From contig CAVRDX010000002.1 in assembly GCA_963719945.1 (NCBI GenBank), positions 32,001 through 96,000 on the forward strand: a stretch of 64,000 nt of DNA, in the 5' to 3' direction. A model generated the notes under the pieces. It was not told the DNA's origin. It saw nothing but the letters and a program-made list of their open reading frames with translations, and ran no database searches. Shown in pieces: positions 11,356 through 27,298 of this stretch (position 1 is the stretch's first letter; each line of letters opens with the position of its first letter). Source of the stretch: an uncultured Thermoplasmata archaeon. Its GTDB lineage: Archaea > Thermoplasmatota > Thermoplasmata > UBA10834. The position numbers and the translations under genes were made by a program.

Positions 11356-13191
11356 TCATACGCCCCTAAGATATCTCTCCATCTCCGTCTTCAGTGTCTG
11401 GAGTCGTCCGATCTGGTCAGTCATCGTAGCCTTGTCCTCCGCCTCTTGGCGCTTCCTCCACCAGAGGTACATGAACACAGCTAGCAAGCCACATATCGCA
11501 GACAATGCAAGGAACACAGAGGCGTAGTCGGAACCACGTGATAGCTGGATGATTCCAATCATCCCAGCACCGACGGCATAGAATGAGAGGAAGAATATGA
11601 GCAACCAGTGGCCTGGCTTCCCGAACATGCCACTCTTTCGTCTCAGCCTAAGCCACTTCGGCATCTCCCCGTACGATTCCGCGATGAGCTCGAACGAGGA
11701 GCCTTCATCGTCTGCCGGCAGCATACCTGAAACCTCCCTCGAGAGCGCGACCGCGAGTCTCGAGGTCCAAGCCTTTAGTTCGTTGATTATCGGTCCTAGT
11801 TTCCTGGCGACCAAAAACCAATAGACGAACGAGGCTACAGCGCCAACCATCAGGCTGAAGAACAATCTGTACATCAACGATAACTCGTATTCCATGTTCC
11901 GCCAGACAAACGAGTTGATTTGAGCGAATGCGATTGCAGAGACAATCAGCATCACCAGGATCCATGCATTGTATTTCGCCCTTGTGGCCTCATAGGCCTC
12001 CGCTGAGATCCGCTTGCCCTCGGATAGACCCGCCACTAACAGCATCCTTGTTTCCGACACCTCATCCTTACGATCAAGCACTGGCAACTGGAACAGCCTC
12101 GGCAGGACCCGATCGCTGGCGAACGCGGACGACCTGTAGAGCATGAACAGCGCAATGACCAAAGGCATCGGAGGAATCATGGTCGCCAAATACGCGGCAA
12201 CTAGCAGGACCAACAGTCCCCTCGACGTGCTTGCGGCGCGAAAGGATAATAGTGTCCCTTCGGGCACGGCTCTCGCAAAGACTTTGATCGCCGAGGTAGA
12301 CGATATCCGGATCGTGCGCTGCAGCAGATTCCCGGAAACCCTGTAGCCCGATAATTGGAGTCTGTGGGTAAGATTGGAGAGCACGATATCCGGATCGCCG
12401 TCCACGATCGAGAGTCTGAACCTCAAGGTGAATACGATCGCGGTGCATACCACAGAAGCAAGCGACAATCGAAGCCCCCAGCCGAATGCGCTGAATGGGA
12501 TCTTCCCATCAATCAGAGCATATTCGAGAGAGCCTACGATGATCACGATTGCAGCTACGAGAGTGACCAGCCCTGCCATTGCAAGAACGGCCTTTCGTCT
12601 CTCGGTCATCCCTATACGAGACGAGGCCTGCCCAGTGTCTTTGCTTCTCAGAGATGCGGAGTTCCTTTCGATTGCATAACCGACGGCCATCGCCATGCCC
12701 AGTAAGATCCCGGCCACTGGAAAGCTGAAGGAGACGCTGGCCTTTGATGTGAGCTGCAGGATCGCCGGCTCCGTCCCTTCGTTGACGTACACAAAGTACG
12801 TCTCCCACATGGTACCTCCGCCACCCATGCCTCCACCGCTGCCTTCGCTCAGCATCCTTGATTCTATACAATCATAGCTCCATCCCTCCTGGAACCTATA
12901 GAAGTTGATTCTGTCGAGCATAAGGAAGCGTATCTCTGACCCGCTCATCACGGAATATTGATGTTCCATCTCCCCAAGGCCATATAGGCCGAAATGAATA
13001 GCATGGTAAGACAACGGTTCGATAACTATCGTTTCGGAGTCGATGCGCTCCGGGAAGATGGTTGCAGACACGAATATCGTGCTCACAAGTATTGCGACGA
13101 TTACAAACGCGAAAACTGAACGATTCACCCTCTCAGGCCATCTGGGCTTGGGCACGCTATCCGTGGTAGCCGAAGCTGTCCCCCCATTCAT
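11356..13191 (-). CDS. Polytopic membrane protein of unknown function
   Basis: Multiple TM segments; GGTGA RBS before ATG 13191; 3 nt upstream of the wHTH gene. Confidence 0.7.
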   Translation of the reverse strand: MNGGTASATTDSVPKPRWPERVNRSVFAFVIVAILVSTIFVSATIFPERIDSETIVIEPLSYHAIHFGLYGLGEMEHQYSVMSGSEIRFLMLDRINFYRFQEGWSYDCIESRMLSEGSGGGMGGGGTMWETYFVYVNEGTEPAILQLTSKASVSFSFPVAGILLGMAMAVGYAIERNSASLRSKDTGQASSRIGMTERRKAVLAMAGLVTLVAAIVIIVGSLEYALIDGKIPFSAFGWGLRLSLASVVCTAIVFTLRFRLSIVDGDPDIVLSNLTHRLQLSGYRVSGNLLQRTIRISSTSAIKVFARAVPEGTLLSFRAASTSRGLLVLLVAAYLATMIPPMPLVIALFMLYRSSAFASDRVLPRLFQLPVLDRKDEVSETRMLLVAGLSEGKRISAEAYEATRAKYNAWILVMLIVSAIAFAQINSFVWRNMEYELSLMYRLFFSLMVGAVASFVYWFLVARKLGPIINELKAWTSRLAVALSREVSGMLPADDEGSSFELIAESYGEMPKWLRLRRKSGMFGKPGHWLLIFFLSFYAVGAGMIGIIQLSRGSDYASVFLALSAICGLLAVFMYLWWRKRQEAEDKATMTDQIGRLQTLKTEMERYLRGV

Positions 13192-13369
13192 CGAGTCACC
13201 GCACATGAACCAAGGCTTGTGGTTAGATAAGGGTTACTCCTTGGCGGTGTGTCTGTGGGCGTTCTCCCAATGCTATTCGCCCGATTTTGCAGGTCGTAGC
13301 CAGTCCTCGACCAATCCCCGCCAACCACACTTCAATCAGATACATAGGGATTATGTACCGCTGATAGAA

Positions 13370-14521
13370 ATGATAGCTATAATGAGAAGCTCGGTCATGA
13401 TATCGATCGGCTTATTCGTAGCCGTCAATCTAGCTATCATCGGGGGCTTTAATTTCATCGCTTACGGTCATGCAGAGGACACGGAACCCGAGGTCGAATT
13501 GGTCCCTGAGCCCTGGGTTCACGAGACTCACGAGTTCAATGTATCAGGAGAGATAGATGGCACTCCCACCGACGAATTCTTTGTCAACGAGAAGTGGTCG
13601 ATCGAAGTGCGCCACGGGGACGTGATGACACTCATCATGGCCAGAACCATAACTCAGGATAATGTCGCATCCGTGGATTACACGAACAACATTCATTATT
13701 ACATTGAGGGAAAGCTGTACATAGCTCAATTCATGATCATGGAGTTGGTGTTCAAGATCAGGAGCTATGAAATACATGCGCCCCTGAGCACCTGCAGCGG
13801 TTTTAATTTGGAATATTCACCAACAGTGTATGACGGCACAGTGCCGACCCTCGACTGTAACATCACCTATGAGGGCATCCAGGTCTATTCCGTTGAATCG
13901 TTCCCTATCGGATCGGATGTCTCCACGGTCGATCTGACCTTGGTGCATCACATCAGAGGAGATTGGAACAATACACACATCAAGATCGAAGCATTGCTGG
14001 ATTTCAGCAACACCATGTTCTTCAATCCGGACGACGACCACATAGAGTTCGACGCAGGCGAACCTTTCACCGCGGAGATCAGTTACATGATGATGCTCGC
14101 GAACCCCGAGGATTTTCGCACCATAGGGCCCGTCATTCCATCGGGCTACGCGAACAATACCCTTGAGTATAACTTGACTCTTGATGATGGGACTCCTCTG
14201 ACCGTGTCGAAATTGGACATGAGGGACACCTTCACGATCTATAACGCGAGCGGTTCCCATGACTCGACAGGGTATTCATCCATGGAGGTATACGGCGGAC
14301 AAGCCCACGTCACCCATGGATTCCCGAACCTGACATACAAAGACACCAAATCAATGAAGAGCGACCCGGAGATCACCATATTCCATAATTGGGTCACAGA
14401 GAACGATTATTCTTCGACTGAGGGGACGACTCTTTGGATATTGATACCAGTGATAGCTGGTATCGCAGCGGTTGGCATAGGCATCTTCCTTTACAGGAGA
14501 AGGGGCCACGTATCGGAATAG
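13370..14521 (+). CDS. Secreted protein with C-terminal membrane anchor
   Basis: Signal peptide from 13370/13382; acidic beta-rich body; C-terminal TM followed by RRR. Confidence 0.7.
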   Translation: MIAIMRSSVMISIGLFVAVNLAIIGGFNFIAYGHAEDTEPEVELVPEPWVHETHEFNVSGEIDGTPTDEFFVNEKWSIEVRHGDVMTLIMARTITQDNVASVDYTNNIHYYIEGKLYIAQFMIMELVFKIRSYEIHAPLSTCSGFNLEYSPTVYDGTVPTLDCNITYEGIQVYSVESFPIGSDVSTVDLTLVHHIRGDWNNTHIKIEALLDFSNTMFFNPDDDHIEFDAGEPFTAEISYMMMLANPEDFRTIGPVIPSGYANNTLEYNLTLDDGTPLTVSKLDMRDTFTIYNASGSHDSTGYSSMEVYGGQAHVTHGFPNLTYKDTKSMKSDPEITIFHNWVTENDYSSTEGTTLWILIPVIAGIAAVGIGIFLYRRRGHVSE

Positions 14522-15346: not shown

Positions 15347-16315
15347 ATGTCACCTGTCGAACTGTCCGGTGTCCACATCCTGCTAACCTACAAGTGCCTC
15401 TACGAATGCGACCATTGCTTCGTCTGGAGCAGCCCACGCTCGCAGGGCACGATGACCCTTGCCCAGCTCGAAGACGTCATAAGGCAGGCACATGAGATTC
15501 CTTCCGTGAAGCGCGTGTACTTCGAGGGTGGGGAACCATTCATATTCTATCCCCTCCTGCGCAGAGGAATCCAGCTCGCAAGGAAGCTCTCCCTCGAAGT
15601 CGGTGTGGTAACAAACGCATACTTCGCCACGGATGATGGTGCGGCTGACCTTTGGCTCAGACCATTGGCGGAGATGGGGATCTCTGATCTCAGCCTCAGC
15701 ACGGATGTTCATCACGGCATCGGGGAAGAGAAGGAGATGGTGCAAAGGGCGAAGAAAGCTGCTGAGAGGCTCGGGATACCAGTTGGGGTAATAGAGATCG
15801 AGGACGTCGAACAGTTCTCTTGCTCTGCACCTAGAGATGAATCGAAAGGGCAGCTCTGCTTCAGAGGCAGGGCGGCGGTAAAGCTTGCGGGAAATGTCAA
15901 GAAGAAACCATGGAAGACCTTCGATACCTGCCCCGAGGAGCCTCCGGCAATCGGCAGAGTCCATGTCGACCCCTACGGTAATGTGCTGTTCTGTCAAGGG
16001 ATATCCATCGGCAATGCATGGAAGAAGCCACTAAAGAGGATCATGTCGGAGCTGGATGCTCGGAAACATCCGATCATCGGTCCGTTGATTGAAGGCGGAC
16101 CTGCGAGGTTAGCCAAACAATTCGATGTGAAGCCAAAAAGAACGTACGCGGACGAGTGTCACATGTGCTATGAGGTCAGATGTGCACTGAGGGAGAGACG
16201 GGCAGTCAGGGAGATCTTGCTGCCGGACCAGCTGTACGGCGTGACATCTGAGGATGCTTTGCAGCCCGAGTTCTCCAAAAGGACAAGGACTTCTCTGAAG
16301 AAGAGGCAAGGATAG
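15347..16315 (+). CDS. Radical SAM protein
   Basis: CLYECDHC (CxxxCxxC), EGGEPF; C-terminal VDPYGNVLFC and ECHMC. Confidence 0.88.
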   Translation: MSPVELSGVHILLTYKCLYECDHCFVWSSPRSQGTMTLAQLEDVIRQAHEIPSVKRVYFEGGEPFIFYPLLRRGIQLARKLSLEVGVVTNAYFATDDGAADLWLRPLAEMGISDLSLSTDVHHGIGEEKEMVQRAKKAAERLGIPVGVIEIEDVEQFSCSAPRDESKGQLCFRGRAAVKLAGNVKKKPWKTFDTCPEEPPAIGRVHVDPYGNVLFCQGISIGNAWKKPLKRIMSELDARKHPIIGPLIEGGPARLAKQFDVKPKRTYADECHMCYEVRCALRERRAVREILLPDQLYGVTSEDALQPEFSKRTRTSLKKRQG

Positions 16316-16362: not shown

Positions 16363-17835
16363 TTGTTGTCAGTGAAAGGGATCAAGCTCAATCAGAACTC
16401 AAGACTGAAAGTCTTGACCGATGACCAGATCGATGCTATACACGACGCCACCCTGAAAATCCTTGAGAGGACAGGTATCAGGTACGACAGCGAAGATGCC
16501 AGGAAGAGGCTTTTGGATGCAGGCGCTGCGAACCATCCCACGAGGAAAGGAGTCATCACATTCCCGAGATCCATGGTCGAGGACGCCATTAGCAAGGTCA
16601 CTCATCGCAACATGTATCCTGCTCGAGACAAGAGATGGGACATCGAGTTCGATGGCGAGCACATGTTCCCGTACGCAGGCGGAGGAGACCCGAAGATAAT
16701 AGATCTGGGGACAGGCCAAGTGAGACACTCGACCTATAACGATATCGAGATGGCAGCCAAACTCGGCGACTCACTCGAGAACAACAACTTCGCATCCAGC
16801 CTGGTGATGGCGAATGATGTCCCGCCTGAGCTGCTGGTCCTGAAGACCGTCGAGGCAGCTATGAAGAACACGGGAAAGGCGGTCACTGCATATGCCCCCG
16901 ACAAGGAAACGGTCGATTACCTTGTGAAGATGTGGGCATGCGTATCTGGAGGAACCGAGGAGCTCCGGAAGAGACCTCTGTTCAGCCTCGGCGGGTCCCC
17001 GAGCAGCCCGCTCACATACTCGGAGCACACCTGCGATGTGTTGCTTCGAAGCGTCGAGCACGGTATCCCGTTCTCCGCCCTTCCCTGCCCTATCTGCGGG
17101 GAGACGGGACCTATGACTCTGGGCGGCGCATTGGCGCAGCAGAATGCTGAACAACTAGGTGGCATCATGCTCATGCAGACGGTGACCACGAGCCTGCCCA
17201 CATACTACTCCGGAAGGGTATGCGTCATGGATCCTCGTTCAGGAAGGGACCTTTGGGGGGTCCCTGAAGAAGCACTCTTGTCTGCGGCCATAGTACAAAT
17301 CGCTCGCAGGTACGGGATGGTGGCAGACACCAACGGTATGTCATCCGACATCACCAGATGGGACATGCAGATGGGGTTCGAACAGATGATGACCGGTCTG
17401 ATACCGGCCCTGGCAGGTGCGGACAGCATATCCGGCCTCGGCAGCGGGTGGGCGAGTGCCAGCAGTCTCGAGATGATGGTCATAAACAACGAGGTCTTCA
17501 ACGATATCGCGAGGATACTCAACGGCATCCGTATCGACGAAGGGAGCCTTGCGATAGACCTGATAGATAAGGTTGGAACCATGGGCAGCTTCCTGGCAGA
17601 ACCTCACACCATGGAGAGCATCCGCGATGGAGAAGTACGCATCTCGTCGCTCTGGGACAAACGGAGTTCAGATAAAGTCACCAAGGAAGGCTTCAAGCCG
17701 ATCCAGGAAACTGCAAGAGACGTTGTGCGGAGACGACTCGAGGACCACGAACCGGAGCCATTGGATAGGGATGTGGTGAACGGGATAGATCAAGTCATCA
17801 AAGAAGCTGCCAGAACATTTCTAGGGAGATCGTAG
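16363..17835 (+). CDS. mttB: Trimethylamine methyltransferase MttB superfamily, non-pyrrolysine member
   Basis: LTDDQIDAIHDATLKILERTGI, TGPMTLGGALAQQNAE.LGGI, GSFLAEPHT motifs; no in-frame amber codon. Confidence 0.88.
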   Translation: MLSVKGIKLNQNSRLKVLTDDQIDAIHDATLKILERTGIRYDSEDARKRLLDAGAANHPTRKGVITFPRSMVEDAISKVTHRNMYPARDKRWDIEFDGEHMFPYAGGGDPKIIDLGTGQVRHSTYNDIEMAAKLGDSLENNNFASSLVMANDVPPELLVLKTVEAAMKNTGKAVTAYAPDKETVDYLVKMWACVSGGTEELRKRPLFSLGGSPSSPLTYSEHTCDVLLRSVEHGIPFSALPCPICGETGPMTLGGALAQQNAEQLGGIMLMQTVTTSLPTYYSGRVCVMDPRSGRDLWGVPEEALLSAAIVQIARRYGMVADTNGMSSDITRWDMQMGFEQMMTGLIPALAGADSISGLGSGWASASSLEMMVINNEVFNDIARILNGIRIDEGSLAIDLIDKVGTMGSFLAEPHTMESIRDGEVRISSLWDKRSSDKVTKEGFKPIQETARDVVRRRLEDHEPEPLDRDVVNGIDQVIKEAARTFLGRS

Positions 17836-17981
17836 ACCGTCCATTCGATTGCATTAACGAACGCCTTCCCAATCCATGAAGGATGGGCAAACCAGTATGA
17901 TATTGCTCATCGTGATGCACTGGGCTTCCCTCGGCAAGGTTATAAGTGGCCAAAGTGAAATCATCCTCGTCAGGGTCTGGA

Positions 17982-18350
17982 ATGAACAAGCTAGTGGGGG
18001 CTTTGGTGACATTCGCCGGGATATGCCTGGTGATCCTCGGCGCTATTTTCATCATAGCGTGGAGCGTCGAGAATGCGATCGCTGGAGGCATGATGGTACT
18101 GATAGGCGTGGGCCTCATGTACTACATGTACAGGGTCGAGAAGATCGAGGCCGCAAAACCTCAACTCGTGTCTCAGACATTCAATGTCAAGATGTCTGGT
18201 TCAGGCGAGATGGCCCCGAAGGACATGATATGCAAATCATGTGGCGCGCCGATCACCGAGAAGAACTTGAAGGTCATCCAGGGCGGACTCATGGCCACAT
18301 GCCCGTACTGTGGCGCCGTGTTCGCGCTGCAGGAAGCTCCGAAGTGGTGA
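17982..18350 (+). CDS. Small 2-TM membrane protein with C-terminal zinc ribbon
   Basis: Two TM helices then CKSCGA...CPYCG, ending EAPKW; TTATAA at 17940-17945 upstream. Alternative GTG start at 17946. Confidence 0.8.
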   Translation: MNKLVGALVTFAGICLVILGAIFIIAWSVENAIAGGMMVLIGVGLMYYMYRVEKIEAAKPQLVSQTFNVKMSGSGEMAPKDMICKSCGAPITEKNLKVIQGGLMATCPYCGAVFALQEAPKW

Positions 18351-18366
18351 TATCATCATATCTACC

Positions 18367-20034
18367 ATGATCCGTCCCGCACTGATGTCATGTTCCATCG
18401 TCATGATACTCGTCCTTGCCATAGGCATAAGCGCTTGTCCGTTCTCCAATTCGGCCGATGCAGCGGCGACATACAGCTTCAGTGTCGAGTATGAGCGCTT
18501 GGATGTCTTCGTGCTCAAGGACGGGAGTATCGACATAGACTACTCATTCGGAATGACGAACTTCGGATATCTTGATGGAGTCGACATAGGCCTGCCCAAC
18601 AAGTACTATGACCTAGACTCGGCCGAAGCCACGATCATTGTGAACGATCAGGAGTACGCTCCCGCTCTGATACACAAATCACCTTACGTGGAAATCGGAG
18701 TGGCCGTCGAGTTCACGAGCACAGTGATGGCGTTGATCGACACATATGGCACATCATTCCAGCTGGATTTCCATATCAACAACCCGCATATGGTGTACGA
18801 GAACGAGCTCGTGGAAGGCACTGTCGGCATAGCAATGAGACCGACCTGGTTCGGCGACGCGTATCAGGTGGGTCCGACCGAGGAGCTCACTGCGAGGGTG
18901 TTCTTCCCCGATGGATTCGTGAACGTCACCGATGCCGTCTACCTCGAAGGGCAACCATGGAACGAGATAGGGATCGACCCCGGGACAGGGCTATTGGTCG
19001 CCACATGGACCGCGTCGAATGCCTATCCCGCGGGCATCGCGTCTGGCGAATTCGATTTCGGCGCGGGGTTCCCTGCAGAGTTCGTGGACAGTTATGTGCG
19101 CCATACGGTCTGGAACTCGATCGCGGACTTCTTCGCCTCACTCTTGGAACTGGTCTGCCTCTGCATACCCATCATAGCCCTTGGGGGATTCATATTCCTC
19201 ATATACATGATTGACAGGGCCAGCAAGGCCGCGAAGAGGAAGGATTACTTCAATCCGGCCATGGGAGTCGTCGGCTCGGGCCCACGGAGGGACCTCACCG
19301 CAGTAGAAGCTGCAATCGTACTCGAGAGACCTCTCGAGATGGTGGCGACCATGATACTCTTCGGATTGGTGAAGAAGGGTATGGTGAGGATAGACTCGGA
19401 TCAGAGACCGATGAAGCTGACGAAACTAGGAGCCGAGGGGGAACACACCTACGAGACCGACTACCTCAGGGGGATCGGTCCCGATGGTCAGCTGGATCGC
19501 ACACAGCTGGAGGTGACCCTTGTCGACCTGATAAAGAGGACCGAGACGAAGCTCGATGGCTTCAACTATAGACACACCAAGAATTACTATCAGGAGATAT
19601 GCTCCGCCGCGTGGAAACAGGTCAAGGATGCTGGAACCCCCGAGGAGTTCGCATCGGTCCTTTCCGACAAGCACGAGTGGATGATGCTCGACAATCACTA
19701 CGAGACGCAGATGCGACACTATTTCTTCGCCATGCCATACGTCTACGTGCCCATGACGCACTCCGTTTACGAACACACTATGCCGACAGCACAAGTGTCT
19801 CCCCAGCAGCTTGCATCCAACTACGCTACGAGCGTCAAGAACGCGAGCAACAACGTTGTCTCGAATTTCAAGTCTCTGGCATATGATATAGCTGGAAAGA
19901 CGAACCCCGTGACGACGTCCACGGGTTCGGGTTCTGGTTCGTACCTCAAAGGTGGCGGCGGATTCGGTGGATTCGGAGGAGGATGCGCGTGTGCATGTGC
20001 ATGCGCATGTGCCTGCGCTGGGGGTGGAAGATGA
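18367..20034 (+). CDS. DUF2207-like single-pass membrane protein with C-terminal Gly-rich/(Cys-Ala)6 tail; putative radical SAM substrate
   Basis: Signal peptide; ERLDVFVLKDGSIDIDYSF N-domain; TM followed by KAAKRK; ATMILFGLVKKG.V.I motif; ends GGGGFGGFGGGCACACACACACAGGGR. Confidence 0.8.
   Translation: MIRPALMSCSIVMILVLAIGISACPFSNSADAAATYSFSVEYERLDVFVLKDGSIDIDYSFGMTNFGYLDGVDIGLPNKYYDLDSAEATIIVNDQEYAPALIHKSPYVEIGVAVEFTSTVMALIDTYGTSFQLDFHINNPHMVYENELVEGTVGIAMRPTWFGDAYQVGPTEELTARVFFPDGFVNVTDAVYLEGQPWNEIGIDPGTGLLVATWTASNAYPAGIASGEFDFGAGFPAEFVDSYVRHTVWNSIADFFASLLELVCLCIPIIALGGFIFLIYMIDRASKAAKRKDYFNPAMGVVGSGPRRDLTAVEAAIVLERPLEMVATMILFGLVKKGMVRIDSDQRPMKLTKLGAEGEHTYETDYLRGIGPDGQLDRTQLEVTLVDLIKRTETKLDGFNYRHTKNYYQEICSAAWKQVKDAGTPEEFASVLSDKHEWMMLDNHYETQMRHYFFAMPYVYVPMTHSVYEHTMPTAQVSPQQLASNYATSVKNASNNVVSNFKSLAYDIAGKTNPVTTSTGSGSGSYLKGGGGFGGFGGGCACACACACACAGGGR
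19984..20019 (+). repeat. Coding (Cys-Ala)x6 dipeptide repeat
   Basis: TGC GCG TGT GCA TGT GCA TGC GCA TGT GCC TGC GCT: six CA units with varied synonymous codons. Confidence 0.9.
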
Positions 20035-21383
20035 TGCCATTCAGACTCCTTGCCTATTCACCTGAAGAACTAGGCCTCAAGCCCGGCACGTACAAGTACG
20101 ACGGACCTGGCGACCTCGCTCGTCACCGATTCCATATCAGGGTGGACAGTCAGACGAAGGGCGTGCTGATGGTGGACGCGTCGAAGCTGATCTTCCTGAA
20201 CGGTACTGCTCTCGACTACGTGAGATGCATACTCGAGGGGAAGGACGCGGACCGAACATATGCCTACATGAAACGTAGATACAAGGGTCTCAAGAAGGCC
20301 GCCGCCAGGGAAGACTATAGGTCCACCAGGGAGAGGCTTACTCGATTCGTCAAGGGCGAAGAGTCAGTCATGGACGTCATGGGACCCAACGCACCCGCAA
20401 TCGGTGCGGATGAGATGCCATCGCCATACAGGATGGACCTTGCGCTCACATACCGATGCCAGAACGACTGCGGACACTGCTACAACGCAACCAAGGAGAA
20501 GAAGGAGCTTTCGGTGAAGGAGTGGATCACCATCATAGACAAGCTCTGGGACGCAGGCATACCGCACATAGTATTCACCGGGGGAGAGCCGACCCTGTAC
20601 GACGGCCTAGATGAGCTGATAGCTCATTCTGAACTCCACGGACAGATCACAGGACTCATCTCGAACGGCCGGAGCCTCGGAAAGCCGGGCTACCTGAGTT
20701 CTCTCGTGTCCAAGGGGTTGGACCATGTCCAGATCACGGTGCTCTCGCACGAGCGAGAGACACACGATCGATTGGCAGGTGCCAAGGGCGCGTGGCAGGA
20801 GACGATCGCGGGATTGAAGGCTGCGATCGCCGAGGACATGTATGTCAGCACCAACACGACAATCATGAGATCCAATTACGCGCACGTCAAGGAGACCATG
20901 AGGTTCCTCGTCGGCCTCGGTGTGAAGAATATCGCGTTCAACAGCATCATACGGTCCGGAAAGGGCGTGCAGGCAGAAGGCGTGACATATCAAGAATTAT
21001 CATCGCTTCTGGAGGAACTCAGAGGTATAGCCTCTGAGACGGGGACGAAACTGATATGGTATTCTCCCACACCGTACTGCGAACTCAATCCGGTGAACAT
21101 GGGCCTGGGCATCAAGCAATGCACCGCCTGTTCACTGAACATGGCGGTCGAGCCCGACGGGACTGTGCTACCATGCCAGAGCTATTACGAACCTCTCGGG
21201 GACATGCTCAAGGATGATTGGTCCACCATATGGGGACATCCGCAATGCGAGCGCATCAGGAAGAGGGAGTATGTCGACGAGAAGTGCGGGAAGTGCGAGA
21301 TGCTTCAGCTGTGCGGAGGCGGATGCCCGCTTTCTGCGGCTCACGGAGACTATGTGTGCCAGGACAGATACTCATCTATGTGA
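20031..21383 (+). CDS. Radical SAM/SPASM peptide-maturase-like enzyme with N-terminal PqqD/RRE-like domain
   Basis: CQNDCGHC, FTGGEP, SPASM motifs C..C...PDG.V.PC and CGKCEMLQLCGGGC (Cx2Cx5Cx3C); N-terminal strands then IFLNGTA and helices resembling an RRE; ATGA overlap with the upstream stop. Confidence 0.88.
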   Translation: MMPFRLLAYSPEELGLKPGTYKYDGPGDLARHRFHIRVDSQTKGVLMVDASKLIFLNGTALDYVRCILEGKDADRTYAYMKRRYKGLKKAAAREDYRSTRERLTRFVKGEESVMDVMGPNAPAIGADEMPSPYRMDLALTYRCQNDCGHCYNATKEKKELSVKEWITIIDKLWDAGIPHIVFTGGEPTLYDGLDELIAHSELHGQITGLISNGRSLGKPGYLSSLVSKGLDHVQITVLSHERETHDRLAGAKGAWQETIAGLKAAIAEDMYVSTNTTIMRSNYAHVKETMRFLVGLGVKNIAFNSIIRSGKGVQAEGVTYQELSSLLEELRGIASETGTKLIWYSPTPYCELNPVNMGLGIKQCTACSLNMAVEPDGTVLPCQSYYEPLGDMLKDDWSTIWGHPQCERIRKREYVDEKCGKCEMLQLCGGGCPLSAAHGDYVCQDRYSSM

Positions 21384-22154
21384 GTCGGGTTTCTTGGCGA
21401 ACGCATGGAACACGGGGTTGAACTGGAACAAAGAGCCATCTTTTAGCGCGCGTTCCCAGATGGGCCGCAGCTCTGCAAGCCGTTCCTTGCCCTCAACGTT
21501 CTGAGCAGTCAGTTCCAGGTACCTCCATTCGGCCTCTGACTCTGCCCTCAGCTTGTCGATCCCCCATACACCTGGATGTACTCCGACCTCTGCTTCGAGG
21601 TGGCACGCTTCGAAGATGGCCCTCAACTTCCGACCGATCAGAGGATCGCCTCCTTCGGCCCTTATGCCGTCTTCAGCTATCCTGCCAAGTGGGGAGAGCT
21701 CCTGAGGGAAGTCGATCCGAGCGCCAAGGTCCGGCTCCGCAAGACACACGACCCAATGCCTGGAAATGCGAACCATCTCCGACAGAACCCTCACGGGATC
21801 GTCGACCCACAGCATAACGAAAGAGCAATAGGCCATATCGAAGGAGTCATCCTTGAAAGGCAGCGAGTGCGCATCCCCTTCTCTCACCTCTAGACCCCTG
21901 CGTCTGCCCTCGGCAACGGCTGCTGGGTCGATGTCTATTCCCTGCACATCGAACATCGGAGCTAGCAATTCCATTACGAATCCTGGCCCGCATCCGACAT
22001 CCAGAGCGGTCGGTCGCCTTTGCCCATTCCAATTGCTCAGCACCCGCTGCTCAAGTAGCCAGGTCCATGAATCCCTGAGCCAGAGTGATTGCCTCGAGAG
22101 CTGTCTATCCATATCCTTCGCAGACCAGGGCATCGAACATGAAGAGGCGTCCAT
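21372..22154 (-). CDS. Class I SAM-dependent methyltransferase
   Basis: ALDVGCGPG, GIDID, GDAHSLPFKDDSFD; start uncertain (22133, 22154 or 22259). Confidence 0.88.
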   Translation of the reverse strand: MDASSCSMPWSAKDMDRQLSRQSLWLRDSWTWLLEQRVLSNWNGQRRPTALDVGCGPGFVMELLAPMFDVQGIDIDPAAVAEGRRRGLEVREGDAHSLPFKDDSFDMAYCSFVMLWVDDPVRVLSEMVRISRHWVVCLAEPDLGARIDFPQELSPLGRIAEDGIRAEGGDPLIGRKLRAIFEACHLEAEVGVHPGVWGIDKLRAESEAEWRYLELTAQNVEGKERLAELRPIWERALKDGSLFQFNPVFHAFAKKPDSHR

Positions 22155-22706: not shown

Positions 22707-23828
22707 TCAGGCTGCGACCTCGATCGTGCACGATGATATCCCACCGATCAGATCCTCGTAGTCGTAGGCGGGATAGTCCTTCCAGACATCCAATGATCCC
22801 GAGACCAGGCCACTTGCAGTAATATCTAAACTGTAAGTCCCTTCATTCTTGCAGGCGCAGACTTCCCAAGTGAGCAGGACGGTATCGCCTGCGCTGAATG
22901 TCTCGAGGTCTGTCAGGTCAGGTGCCTTGCACACCTTGAGTCCGGATGATGCCTCCATGACCGCGCTGAAGCTCTCGGCAGGGAATGTCGGGAACTTATC
23001 CGATCCGAATGGTGCGAGGCACGGGTATGTAATCTCCGCCGTCACCTTGAACTTCTCACCTGGCAGGACGATCGATGGAGCTGTGATGTCTATCTCCCAT
23101 GGCGTGACGAACACTCCGCCGTACATCATGCCCGGAACGTTCCATCTCGTCGTATCGCAAGTCCAAGTATCCAAGAAGTCCGCATATTTCCACTTGATCG
23201 GCTCGAACTCAGAGTCCCATGCATTCGGGTTCGCGCTCTGCGAGGTCGAGCCCTGATAATCGTGGTCGTTCTTGAACTCCCTCGACCAGCCGTCATTGAT
23301 CAGCAGGACCCCTTCGGAGTCATCGTAGCCCACGACGACACGGTAGTGGTCCCCTGAGTACCATTCTGGAAGCCAATATACGAGCACGATCACGGGATAC
23401 CCTTGGTCGAGTATCTCCTTCATCTCATTCAGCCAGGGCTCATCGGATGCATAGTAGAATCCCGCGTATCCCATGTCCCTGGCGGTATAGCCAGTTACGA
23501 CAGAGTTCGGCCATCTCGCGCCCATGGTCGGGCTCATCGAGCTGAACTGAGCCGCTCGTGCCATATCCGGAAGTGCAGTACCTCCGCTCCTAGCCGCATT
23601 GTATATCTCTCTCTGATCCACGAACTCGCCGTAGTAGTCAAACACCATCTGCAACGATACTGCGCCGCAGCCCTTCGCGTCTATCTGTTGATAGAGCGGG
23701 ACACCGTCGATGAATGCGCTCCCAGACAGGGCTTGAGTTCCTGAGACGGGAAGCACCATCATAGCCACGATGCAGACACACACGCTCGAGATAAGAAATC
23801 GTATACGCCCAACCAGACTCGTCCTCAT
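22707..23828 (-). CDS. Secreted peptidase C39-like (papain-fold) protein with C-terminal Ig-like domain
   Basis: Signal peptide; VPLYQQ...GCGAVSLQMVFDYYG (Cys), DHYRVVVGYDD (His), INDGW (Asp). Confidence 0.8.
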   Translation of the reverse strand: MRTSLVGRIRFLISSVCVCIVAMMVLPVSGTQALSGSAFIDGVPLYQQIDAKGCGAVSLQMVFDYYGEFVDQREIYNAARSGGTALPDMARAAQFSSMSPTMGARWPNSVVTGYTARDMGYAGFYYASDEPWLNEMKEILDQGYPVIVLVYWLPEWYSGDHYRVVVGYDDSEGVLLINDGWSREFKNDHDYQGSTSQSANPNAWDSEFEPIKWKYADFLDTWTCDTTRWNVPGMMYGGVFVTPWEIDITAPSIVLPGEKFKVTAEITYPCLAPFGSDKFPTFPAESFSAVMEASSGLKVCKAPDLTDLETFSAGDTVLLTWEVCACKNEGTYSLDITASGLVSGSLDVWKDYPAYDYEDLIGGISSCTIEVAA

Positions 23829-24072
23829 GCCTTCTCTCCCCCACTGAGCCGGACCCAAGGAATGCCGCTCAGCTTGGGGAGAATCAGACTATCGATTAAT
23901 AACAGATTTGATACAGCGATAGAAATGTCGGCTTGAACGAACTGGAGACTTTTCCAGGGCCATGATTATTCGATTGATACGAACATCGAGAGAAGGCATT
24001 AAACCCTTCAAAACGATTCGTACCCAGCGGCCCTGATTCCAATCAGGGCCGATCGAGAGGAAGTGGGTCAAC

Positions 24073-26382: not shown

Positions 26383-26581
26383 TTCTCCGAAGAGCAGCTC
26401 ACATACACCCAGTCTTGAATCTATTTGATCATGAGGGCAGTGAATTGCAGCATTGAAAAAGAATCAAATAGATGCGACTTTATCCAATGTATAGCAAACA
26501 CATTCGGTGGACCTGGAGGAACAATGGAGAAGCCGAATACATAGATATGAGATATTCCAGGTGATGACTTTGGGTAATAGT

Positions 26582-27298
26582 ATGATAAAGAATTCGATGC
26601 AGGACGAAGGGTCTCGTCCACTTGCATTCCTAGTTGATGGCGATAACTCCTCATTCAAACTCATAGGGGAGATGTTGGACGAGGCATCCAAGCATGGTTC
26701 TGTCAGAGTCAGGCGAGTATACGGGGATTGGACCTCAAAATACATGGAGAACTGGAAGAAATCTCTGCATGAACATGCGCTCAGCCCGATCCAGCAATTC
26801 CCGAACATCCGCGGCAAGAATGCCACGGACAGCGCTCTGATAATAGATGCGATGGATCTTCTGCACGCAGGGATCGTCCAGGGGTTCTGCATAGTCTCAA
26901 GTGACAGCGATTATACAAGACTGGCCACCAGGATCAGAGAAGACGGGTTGTTCGTGATGGCGATAGGTGAGAAGAAGACGCCGGACGCGCTGATGAAAGC
27001 ATGCGATGTCTTCGTTCTGACAGATAACCTGGAGCCAAGAAAGGGATTGAAGGGAAAGGCAGGAGTTCCAAGAGAGCTCATCCTGAAAGCCTTCGATAAT
27101 GTCGAGGATGAAGACGGATATGCGGCCATGGCATCGCTTGGCCAAGCCCTATTGAAGATCGACCCCAGTTTCGATCCCAGGACTTACGGCAAGAGCAAGC
27201 TCGTCTCACTGATCGAGAGCCTATCGGGGGATTTCAAGATCGAGAGAAGGGGAAATCCAGTGACGGGTGCGGTCTTCTTGAGAAGGACGAATAGATAA
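26582..27298 (+). CDS. NYN-domain (LabA/DUF88, PIN-like) protein with C-terminal OST-HTH/LOTUS domain
   Basis: LVDGDN, RVYGDW, GKNATD.AL.IDAMD, VSSDSDY; PSFDPRTYGKSKL. Confidence 0.9.
   Translation: MIKNSMQDEGSRPLAFLVDGDNSSFKLIGEMLDEASKHGSVRVRRVYGDWTSKYMENWKKSLHEHALSPIQQFPNIRGKNATDSALIIDAMDLLHAGIVQGFCIVSSDSDYTRLATRIREDGLFVMAIGEKKTPDALMKACDVFVLTDNLEPRKGLKGKAGVPRELILKAFDNVEDEDGYAAMASLGQALLKIDPSFDPRTYGKSKLVSLIESLSGDFKIERRGNPVTGAVFLRRTNR

Follow-up and report, generated by a model that had tools for sequence, protein, structure and literature searches.

A candidate cassette for RiPP-like modification of membrane proteins with a Cys-Ala repeat tail in anaerobic archaea and bacteria

A 64,000-nt stretch of a contig from an uncultured Thermoplasmata archaeon (hereafter the window) was analyzed, which contains a cassette of four genes at 17982-22121 (Table 1). 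Three of the genes are co-directional. They encode a small zinc-ribbon protein (gene 1, Zb), a membrane protein ending in a Cys-Ala repeat (gene 2, the CA-tail protein) and an enzyme of the radical S-adenosylmethionine (rSAM) type with a SPASM domain (gene 3, RS1). The fourth gene runs toward RS1 from the opposite strand, the ends of the two genes overlapping by 12 nt, and codes for a methyltransferase. In the genome of the window, a single copy each of the CA-tail protein and RS1 was found. An original prediction made from the sequence alone had proposed that RS1 modifies the tail of its neighbor in the manner of the enzymes that mature peptides which are ribosomally synthesized and then post-translationally modified (RiPPs). 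Its statements on the sequence, concerning the TTATAA box, the three co-directional genes, the tail, the overlap of the gene 2 stop codon (TGA, 20032-20034) with the gene 3 start codon (ATG, 20031-20033) and the rSAM/SPASM motifs, all hold. Likewise, no small free precursor gene had been seen, and since the intergenic spacing amounts to only 16 nt between genes 1 and 2 and to -4 nt between genes 2 and 3, a separate small precursor open reading frame (ORF) does not fit into the operon.

Table 1. Position of the cassette genes and of their main features in the window.
Feature	Position	Strand	Basis or remarks
Possible archaeal TATA box (TTATAA) of the operon	17940..17945	+	Read from the sequence; 36 nt 5' of the ATG at 17982
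Zb, 122 aa	17982..18350	+	Two transmembrane helices, cytoplasmic zinc ribbon, ends EAPKW
CA-tail protein, 555 aa	18367..20034	+	AlphaFold2 model, hydrophobicity, Foldseek, weak family matches
Residues 479-516 (helix hairpin, TNPxP motif), candidate leader-like segment	19801..19914	+	Conservation profile
(Cys-Ala)6-Gly-Gly-Gly-Arg tail, candidate core/substrate	19984..20031	+	Conservation
RS1, RRE-rSAM-SPASM enzyme, 450 aa	20031..21383	+	Pfam, AlphaFold2 model, alignment
RS1, RRE (residues ~15-110)	20073-20360	+	AlphaFold2 model, PqqD matches of orthologues
RS1, CxxxCxxC (residues 143-150)	20457-20480	+	Sequence
RS1, SPASM cysteines (residues 350-443)	21078-21359	+	Sequence, alignment
Class I SAM methyltransferase, ~249 aa (ORF open to 22259)	21372..22121	-	Pfam Methyltransf_11, 1e-19

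The C-terminus of gene 2 reads GGGGFGGFGGG-(CA)6-GGGR, with cysteines at positions 540, 542, 544, 546, 548 and 550. To describe its conservation, 80 loci from species-level genomes other than the window's own were compared. All 78 complete copies of the protein end with exactly the same ten residues (CACACAGGGR), and one further copy is cut off at a contig end. The 78 tails are encoded by 78 different DNA versions, in which every synonymous codon and all three stop codons are used. The tail is under selection at the protein level, with its DNA varying freely, and the codon diversity rules out that it arose by chance as a low-complexity run or by slippage of a microsatellite. Two apparent deviations were rejected. 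The seeming fusion of tail protein and RS1 in one locus (L008, 8480-8720) goes back to a frameshift before the tail, and the seeming loss of the tail in another (L038, 8400-8820) is also due to a frameshift; in both loci the tail is intact in another frame. Both sequences are long-read-style assemblies and the frameshifts are likely assembly errors. A search among longer proteins revealed no fused forms of the tail protein, which is weak evidence. On a larger scale, a profile search with gene 2 in 1.84 billion cluster representatives (50% identity) yielded 427 clusters at E <= 1e-30. The endings of 141 representatives, fetched from the best 150 of these clusters, were read: 108 possess CACACAGGGR, 21 a close variant, and 12 are fragments. 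Relatives with identities down to 24% from Thermoplasmatota, Chloroflexota and Bathyarchaeia nearly all terminate with (CA)n-GGG-x. Column conservation reaches its maximum in the tail (0.97), compared to 0.33-0.68 in other parts of the protein, and at the X positions of the Cys-X units Val, Ser or His is tolerated in upstream units only.

The AlphaFold2 (AF2) model of gene 2 has a predicted local distance difference test score (pLDDT) of 82.9. It comprises a signal peptide or anchor (residues 1-30), a beta-sandwich (38-236) resembling DUF2207-N and ribophorin I, a transmembrane (TM) helix (~262-290), a winged helix with a helical bundle (312-451), a hairpin (479-512), a Gly/Ser spacer (517-539) and a disordered end (518-555). 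In gene 2 and four distant relatives, only two hydrophobic segments are of membrane-spanning grade. As, in addition, a Lys/Arg-rich stretch directly follows the TM helix, the tail is expected on the same side of the membrane as the enzyme. The protein is thus predicted to be a type I membrane protein with an outside domain, one membrane pass and ~265 cytoplasmic residues, a topology which had already been proposed and is now supported by the model and the hydrophobic segments. Within the cytoplasmic part, A483 and P514 are invariant and the TNPxP motif is more conserved than the Gly/Ser spacer (0.68 vs 0.33). The segment from the hairpin to TNPxP (479-516) is a candidate for a leader-like recognition element.

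Regarding the family of gene 2, Pfam searches with the whole protein and with its two halves gave no result. By Foldseek, the model matched chains of the human oligosaccharyltransferase complex (~560-580 residues) over the whole architecture and also the N-terminal beta domain of M1 aminopeptidases; one member of the gene 2 family has a Pfam Ribophorin_I match. Weak matches were obtained with the N-terminal domain of DUF2207 (PF09972) in 8 of 56 family members (best 1.9e-5) and with TIGR04222, which covers the domain behind the TM helix, in 12 of 56 (best E 9.7e-8). The window protein itself attained 17.7 bits with TIGR04222 (cut-off 43), and the search for this family in the window's genome gave no match. 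DUF2207 clusters are among the neighbors of gene 2 in the Atlas. Gene 2 is probably a remote relative of the DUF2207/TIGR04222 proteins, of which it is not a member by family cut-offs.

RS1 contains the CxxxCxxC motif (C143, C147, C150), GGEP at residue 184 and the Pfam domains Radical_SAM (1e-21) and SPASM (1.7e-8). Seven cysteines of the SPASM region (C350, C364, C382, C419, C422, C428 and C432) are kept in all 44 aligned RS1 sequences, apart from two that have His instead of C350. In the AF2 model (pLDDT 86.8), the barrel is preceded by four strands (residues 19-57) and three helices (58-107) with pLDDT values of 82-96. The top structural match was SuiB (Z 28.2; model 23-445 vs chain 5-439), followed by SkfB (Z 27.9; model 32-434 vs chain 12-387), and both alignments include the RiPP recognition element (RRE) of these enzymes. 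Moreover, when N-termini of 130 residues from ten orthologues and paralogues of different phyla were searched, PqqD was the first Pfam match for each of them, in four cases above the gathering score. The modeled fold and these matches argue that the N-terminus of RS1 is a PqqD-like RRE, in agreement with the original prediction. With cluster motif, SPASM cysteines and RRE, RS1 has the architecture of the RRE-dependent rSAM/SPASM maturases exemplified by SkfB, SuiB, CteB and CrpC. The closest solved sequences are SkfB and PqqE. Among curated family models, PqqE (TIGR02109) gave the best score (118 bits vs a cut-off of 381), restricted to the rSAM and SPASM part. The SkfB model (TIGR04403) gave 88 bits vs 300 with an alignment starting at residue 40, and the StsB model (NF045574) 74 bits vs 625; AlbA was not among the best 25 of the 62 families matched. 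Weak matches were also obtained with HxsC (69 bits), WgkB (68 bits), SbtM (59 bits, cut-off 350), Tes, NirJ and AhbD. Co-folding of RS1 with residues 470-555 of gene 2, both provided as alignments, resulted in a score of 0.02 in a run without controls, which speaks neither for nor against an interaction.

Methanomassiliicoccales and other Thermoplasmatota share the gene order Zb, tail protein, RS1 with Anaerolineae, Zixibacteria, Cloacimonadota, Acidobacteriota, Planctomycetota and others, and also with Bathyarchaeia, the most distant clade (~25% identity). The cassette is also carried by the complete genome of Leptolinea sp. HRD-7 (L054), which has no label as a metagenome-assembled genome. 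Since the GGEP motif alone was too strict, the rSAM genes downstream of the tail gene were classed by BLAST. Five of the 79 loci with a tail end too early on this side; in 64 of the other 74, an intact RS1 gene starts within 600 nt, and one more locus has a split RS1. The remaining loci possess only an adjacent paralogue devoid of the cluster motif or no rSAM gene within 7 kb, and in seven of eight such cases an RS1-type gene exists elsewhere in the genome, frequently on the opposite strand at a distance of a few kb. The co-occurrence of the enzyme with CA-tail proteins, which the original prediction had named as one of its tests, is thereby borne out across two domains of life.

Within the window's own order (49 genomes), the tail protein and Zb were found in one and the same set of 17 genomes. 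RS1 likewise occurs in 17, of which 15 contain the tail protein. The discordant genomes are two in which the genes lie at contig starts (G013, G021), one with a truncated RS1 remnant (G018) and G044 (69% complete, 220 contigs). About 30 of the 49 genomes, some of them belonging to the same genus, lack any cassette gene. This joint presence and absence indicates that the cassette is an accessory unit gained and lost as a whole and not a housekeeping function. Signs of cassette decay were seen in G018 (93% complete), where only the last 190 residues of RS1 are left beside the methyltransferase (C4:13793-15099), and in G040 (94% complete), where the methyltransferase alone remains (C1:50270-50962). 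DUF2207/TIGR04222 relatives often carry low-complexity tails rich in Gly, Ser and Cys (PMC12452194), and one might suppose that the tail is just such an ordinary end, standing beside RS1 by chance. This explanation has next to no probability, as it is contradicted by the exact conservation of the tail, the synteny in two domains and the joint presence and absence of the genes.

The partners of the tail protein and RS1 are likewise recurrent. In Zb, two hydrophobic helices are combined with a zinc ribbon of the CxxC...CxxC type (Cys 84, 87, 107 and 110). Of 78 loci, 72 encode a relative directly 5' of the tail gene. Judging from gene neighborhoods, the methyltransferase gene belongs to the cassette. 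An orthologue is present in 45 loci, convergent in Methanomassiliicoccales and co-directional in bacterial cassettes, and 19 of the 49 genomes of the order have it, covering the cassette carriers where the assembly allows. In Bathyarchaeia, it is replaced after RS1 by a HAD-family gene (411-412 aa; L094:10033-11271, L096:10044-11279). A second cassette type (L115-L179), found in Anaerolineae, Planctomycetota, Zixibacteria and Sumerlaeota, is composed of Zb, RS1, a further rSAM homologue, the tail protein(s) and the methyltransferase. Its tail proteins, one or, often, two in tandem, comprise ~580-690 aa and end with CACAGCACACACAGGGR. The additional rSAM homologue of bacterial cassettes (~385 aa, ~30% identity to RS1) has lost all cysteines of the CxxxCxxC and SPASM motifs in ten of ten sequences but kept the PqqD-like domain, and by its sequence is a pseudo-enzyme.

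We consider, with a probability of about 60%, that the cassette is a horizontally spread accessory unit for RiPP-like modification of full-size membrane proteins. The RiPP-like reading of the original prediction is partly supported, by co-occurrence, RRE and topology; the prediction had overlooked the conserved PKW end of Zb and the methyltransferase on the opposite strand. The predicted cytoplasmic end of gene 2 is laid out like a precursor peptide with a conserved segment, a Gly/Ser spacer and a (Cys-Ala)n-GGGR core, so that its last ~80 residues may function as built-in leader, spacer and core. Most likely, RS1 would dock via its RRE on the membrane protein and then modify the cysteines of the tail one by one. 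The strict alternation and the invariant cysteines hint at a reaction that recurs on every second tail residue. Zb may be an indispensable partner or itself a second substrate, the methyltransferase may be a tailoring enzyme, and the pseudo-enzyme of the bacterial cassettes probably serves as a scaffold. The arrangement of leader, spacer and core would also be compatible with a membrane protein acting as a giant leader, from which the modified tail is cleaved and released as a small natural product, and a gene for a C39-like peptidase does lie nearby in the window. This is very unlikely, as neither a protease nor an exporter consistently accompanies the cassette, a counterpart of the C39-like gene occurs in none of the 80 loci, and a folded, conserved 'leader' of 540 residues that includes an extracellular domain would be difficult to account for.

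Several observations weigh against modification of the tail by RS1. The N-terminal 135 aa of the window's RS1 alone had no Pfam match, and RS1 remained below the curated cut-off of every characterized family among the best 25 of the 62 matched. In a third cassette variant (L100-L113, L134; e.g., L084:1303-4049), an RS1-like enzyme of 520-577 aa itself has a C-terminal stretch GGGCSGCSGxCG ... RSSGNM..I.L.D. It is paired with a TIGR04222-like membrane protein of 283-361 aa, whose homology to gene 2 covers the TM helix and the cytoplasmic region, and in Anaerolineae this pair adjoins the set of Zb, tail protein and pseudo-enzyme. The membrane partner ends with TFYG and has no Cys tail, so that a tail on the membrane protein is not strictly needed for pairing with the enzyme. 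Furthermore, Cys-x-Cys repeats are a common ligand pattern for metals and Fe-S clusters. It is conceivable, albeit unlikely, that the tail stays unmodified and forms a thiolate metal or Fe-S site, a sulfur or electron relay, or a tether of the RRE to the membrane, with RS1 acting on a lipid or cofactor. The fusion of a Cys-rich stretch to the enzyme in the third variant would agree with this, as would the lipid or tetrapyrrole substrates of some SPASM-like rSAM enzymes; Tes, NirJ and AhbD are among the weak matches of RS1. On the other hand, enzymes with a fused RRE characteristically act on peptides and proteins, genes of lipid or cofactor pathways are not conserved near the loci, and the non-ligand Ala residues, GGGR and the exact spacing are invariant too, which metal binding would not demand.

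The last point to be weighed here is the C-terminus of Zb. It ends with PKW in 72 of 72 copies (54 have EEPKW) and likewise in those of Bathyarchaeia, and its invariant E-x-PKW end makes Zb a rival substrate. RS1 could, for instance, join Lys and Trp by a carbon-carbon crosslink as in streptide and the WGK peptides, in which case the CA tail would serve for docking, metal binding or redox purposes; alternatively, both ends might be substrates or become joined to one another. In favor of this, Zb is present in exactly the 17 genomes of the order that possess the tail protein, and SuiB, the top match of RS1 by fold, is a Lys-Trp crosslinker, as is the weakly matching WgkB. However, SuiB shares only ~18% identity with RS1 and is less than one Z unit ahead of the thioether-forming SkfB. 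Streptide is a free peptide whose Lys and Trp do not stand side by side. PKW follows the folded zinc knuckle of Zb after six residues without spacer or repeat. A SPASM domain with seven cysteines and a core of repeated cysteines better suit Cys-directed chemistry. We therefore regard Zb as a doubtful candidate for the actual substrate.

Modification of a whole protein by an rSAM/SPASM enzyme is known from QhpD and its substrate QhpC. The original prediction knew of no characterized example; precedents for whole proteins exist in CrpC/CrpA and HxsB/HxsC-HxsA, but none belongs to the family described here. CrpC of Methanococcus voltae introduces thioethers into the 28.8 kDa protein CrpA (PMC13692751). 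Like RS1, it is an archaeal RRE-rSAM-SPASM enzyme, and its target cysteines lie in a C-terminal repeat of a whole protein encoded by the adjacent gene, as is proposed here for RS1. According to its authors, seven SPASM cysteines leave one iron of an auxiliary cluster free for a substrate Cys (PMC13692751), and RS1 also has seven conserved SPASM cysteines. By contrast, CrpA is soluble, has no membrane anchor and contains a 17-residue repeat with C-x-x-Q/D motifs, and the Crp cluster lacks a zinc-ribbon partner and a methyltransferase. The CrpC family (TIGR04463, cut-off 525 bits) gave no match at E <= 0.001 in the window's whole genome. The HXS antiphage system, in which the rSAM pair HxsB/HxsC matures the whole protein HxsA (PMC13128918), resembles the cassette in its number of genes (four), its repeat protein (short tandem units, His-x-Ser in HxsA), its pair of rSAM paralogues, its small partner (HxsD) and its accessory distribution. 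Repeat, enzymes and effector architecture differ, though, and HxsA is exported and processed. PADLOC-DB models detected only generic viperin-fold and methyltransferase matches among the components, and no defense island was seen around the cassette in the window, whose neighbors are an MFS transporter, an NYN/OST-HTH protein and unknown secreted proteins.

Among peptide maturases, StsB/StsA and BlaB/BlaA (PMC10288494), SkfB, CteB and AlbA share with RS1 and the CA tail the combination of an auxiliary-cluster rSAM enzyme, an RRE and alternating C-x-C-x-C cysteines. From donor cysteines arranged as C-x-C-x-C, StsB builds three sactionines that are nested (PMC10288494), and SkfB is the enzyme to which RS1 aligns over the full length in sequence and fold. 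The substrates of these maturases, however, are free peptides some tens of residues long in which Gly serves as acceptor, unlike the candidate core at the end of a 555-aa membrane protein. Neither the small leader-core precursor of sactipeptides and ranthipeptides nor a score above the curated SkfB or StsB cut-off was found here. SbtM, an rSAM/SPASM maturase forming thio(seleno)oxazoles, generates a thiooxazole from Gly-Cys (PMC9204691). It oxidizes a Cys beside a small residue to a heterocycle and provides an anaerobic route to the product class of the MNIO enzymes (DUF692), but RS1 matches it weakly, over the rSAM and SPASM part only, and the substrate of SbtM is a small peptide. The MNIO enzymes are of interest as TIGR04222 membrane proteins with Cys-bearing tails have been proposed as their substrates (PMC12452194). 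Both there and here, in each case by prediction, a membrane protein with a disordered C-terminal tail of Gly, Ser and Cys stands beside a Cys-modifying RiPP-type enzyme. MNIO enzymes, however, are O2-dependent non-heme iron proteins and the tails in question are irregular and predicted to be periplasmic, whereas the cassette combines an rSAM enzyme with a strict repeat that is predicted to be cytoplasmic, in anaerobes. MNIO (PF05114) was not detected in the window's genome (87% complete), in contrast to a control genome. The profile libraries name none of the components, and no description of the cassette was found in full-text literature searched for Cys-Ala repeats and the tail motif. The kind of system, an RRE-rSAM maturase with a linked substrate that is sometimes a whole protein, is known, and the family, the membrane-tethered invariant repeat and the partners seem to be undescribed.

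If the tail is indeed the substrate, homology does not decide among thioether formation, thiooxazole formation and epimerization. By analogy, Cys-to-carbon thioether bridges of the sactionine or ranthionine type may be the most plausible single product, although short of an even chance. Cys-derived thiooxazoles, as made by SbtM and MNIO enzymes, would be clearly less probable, and epimerization or another reaction may account for the rest. A more far-reaching and rather improbable idea is that the cassette represents an anaerobic equivalent to the MNIO/TIGR04222 and bufferin systems. It is attractive because TIGR04222 relatives are proposed MNIO substrates and the genome has no MNIO gene. Every second tail residue would be converted to a Cys-derived unit, resulting in a thiooxazole array, a thioether ladder or an alternating D/L strand capped by the methyltransferase. 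The product would be a membrane-anchored polymer at the cytoplasmic face which binds metal, conducts electrons or inserts into the membrane. Together with the PKW end of Zb, it might take part in metal homeostasis, transmembrane signaling or, as HXS, phage defense.

To our knowledge, work on RiPP-type rSAM chemistry has dealt almost exclusively with small free peptides, and the known protein substrates, few in number, are soluble. Here, a full-size membrane protein ends with a strictly conserved dipeptide repeat that is linked to a dedicated RRE-rSAM/SPASM enzyme. The 427 clusters counted come from many anaerobe phyla of both prokaryotic domains. Should the tail be modified, it would represent a new substrate class with a membrane-tethered core and probably a new product. 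It would also provide a first approach to the function of the large DUF2207/TIGR04222 superfamily with its unexplained low-complexity tails.

Some further genes in the vicinity were considered as members of the cassette and rejected, as their counterparts were found in 0 of 80 loci. These are a 322-aa rSAM protein, an MttB-family gene, the C39-like peptidase gene and a 73-aa zinc-ribbon ORF. The 322-aa rSAM protein (15347-16315, plus strand) has a CxxxCxxC motif, a weak SPASM domain and a weak YydG-like match. Directly 3' of it, the MttB-family methyltransferase homologue (16363-17835, plus strand) contains no in-frame TAG and reached 383 bits with the Pyl-type model, whose cut-off is 525. The C39-like gene (22707-23858, minus strand) encodes a secreted-looking protein with a papain-like Peptidase_C39_2 domain (3.6e-16) and a C-terminal region without known family. 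Part of the stretch is contained in a DNA run from freshwater sediment; RNA runs are not listed. Two large ORFs without Pfam family (11356-13206, minus strand, 616 aa; 13043-14521, plus strand, 492 aa) overlap at their ends, and the NYN protein with its OST-HTH/LOTUS domain is encoded at 26507-27298 on the plus strand.

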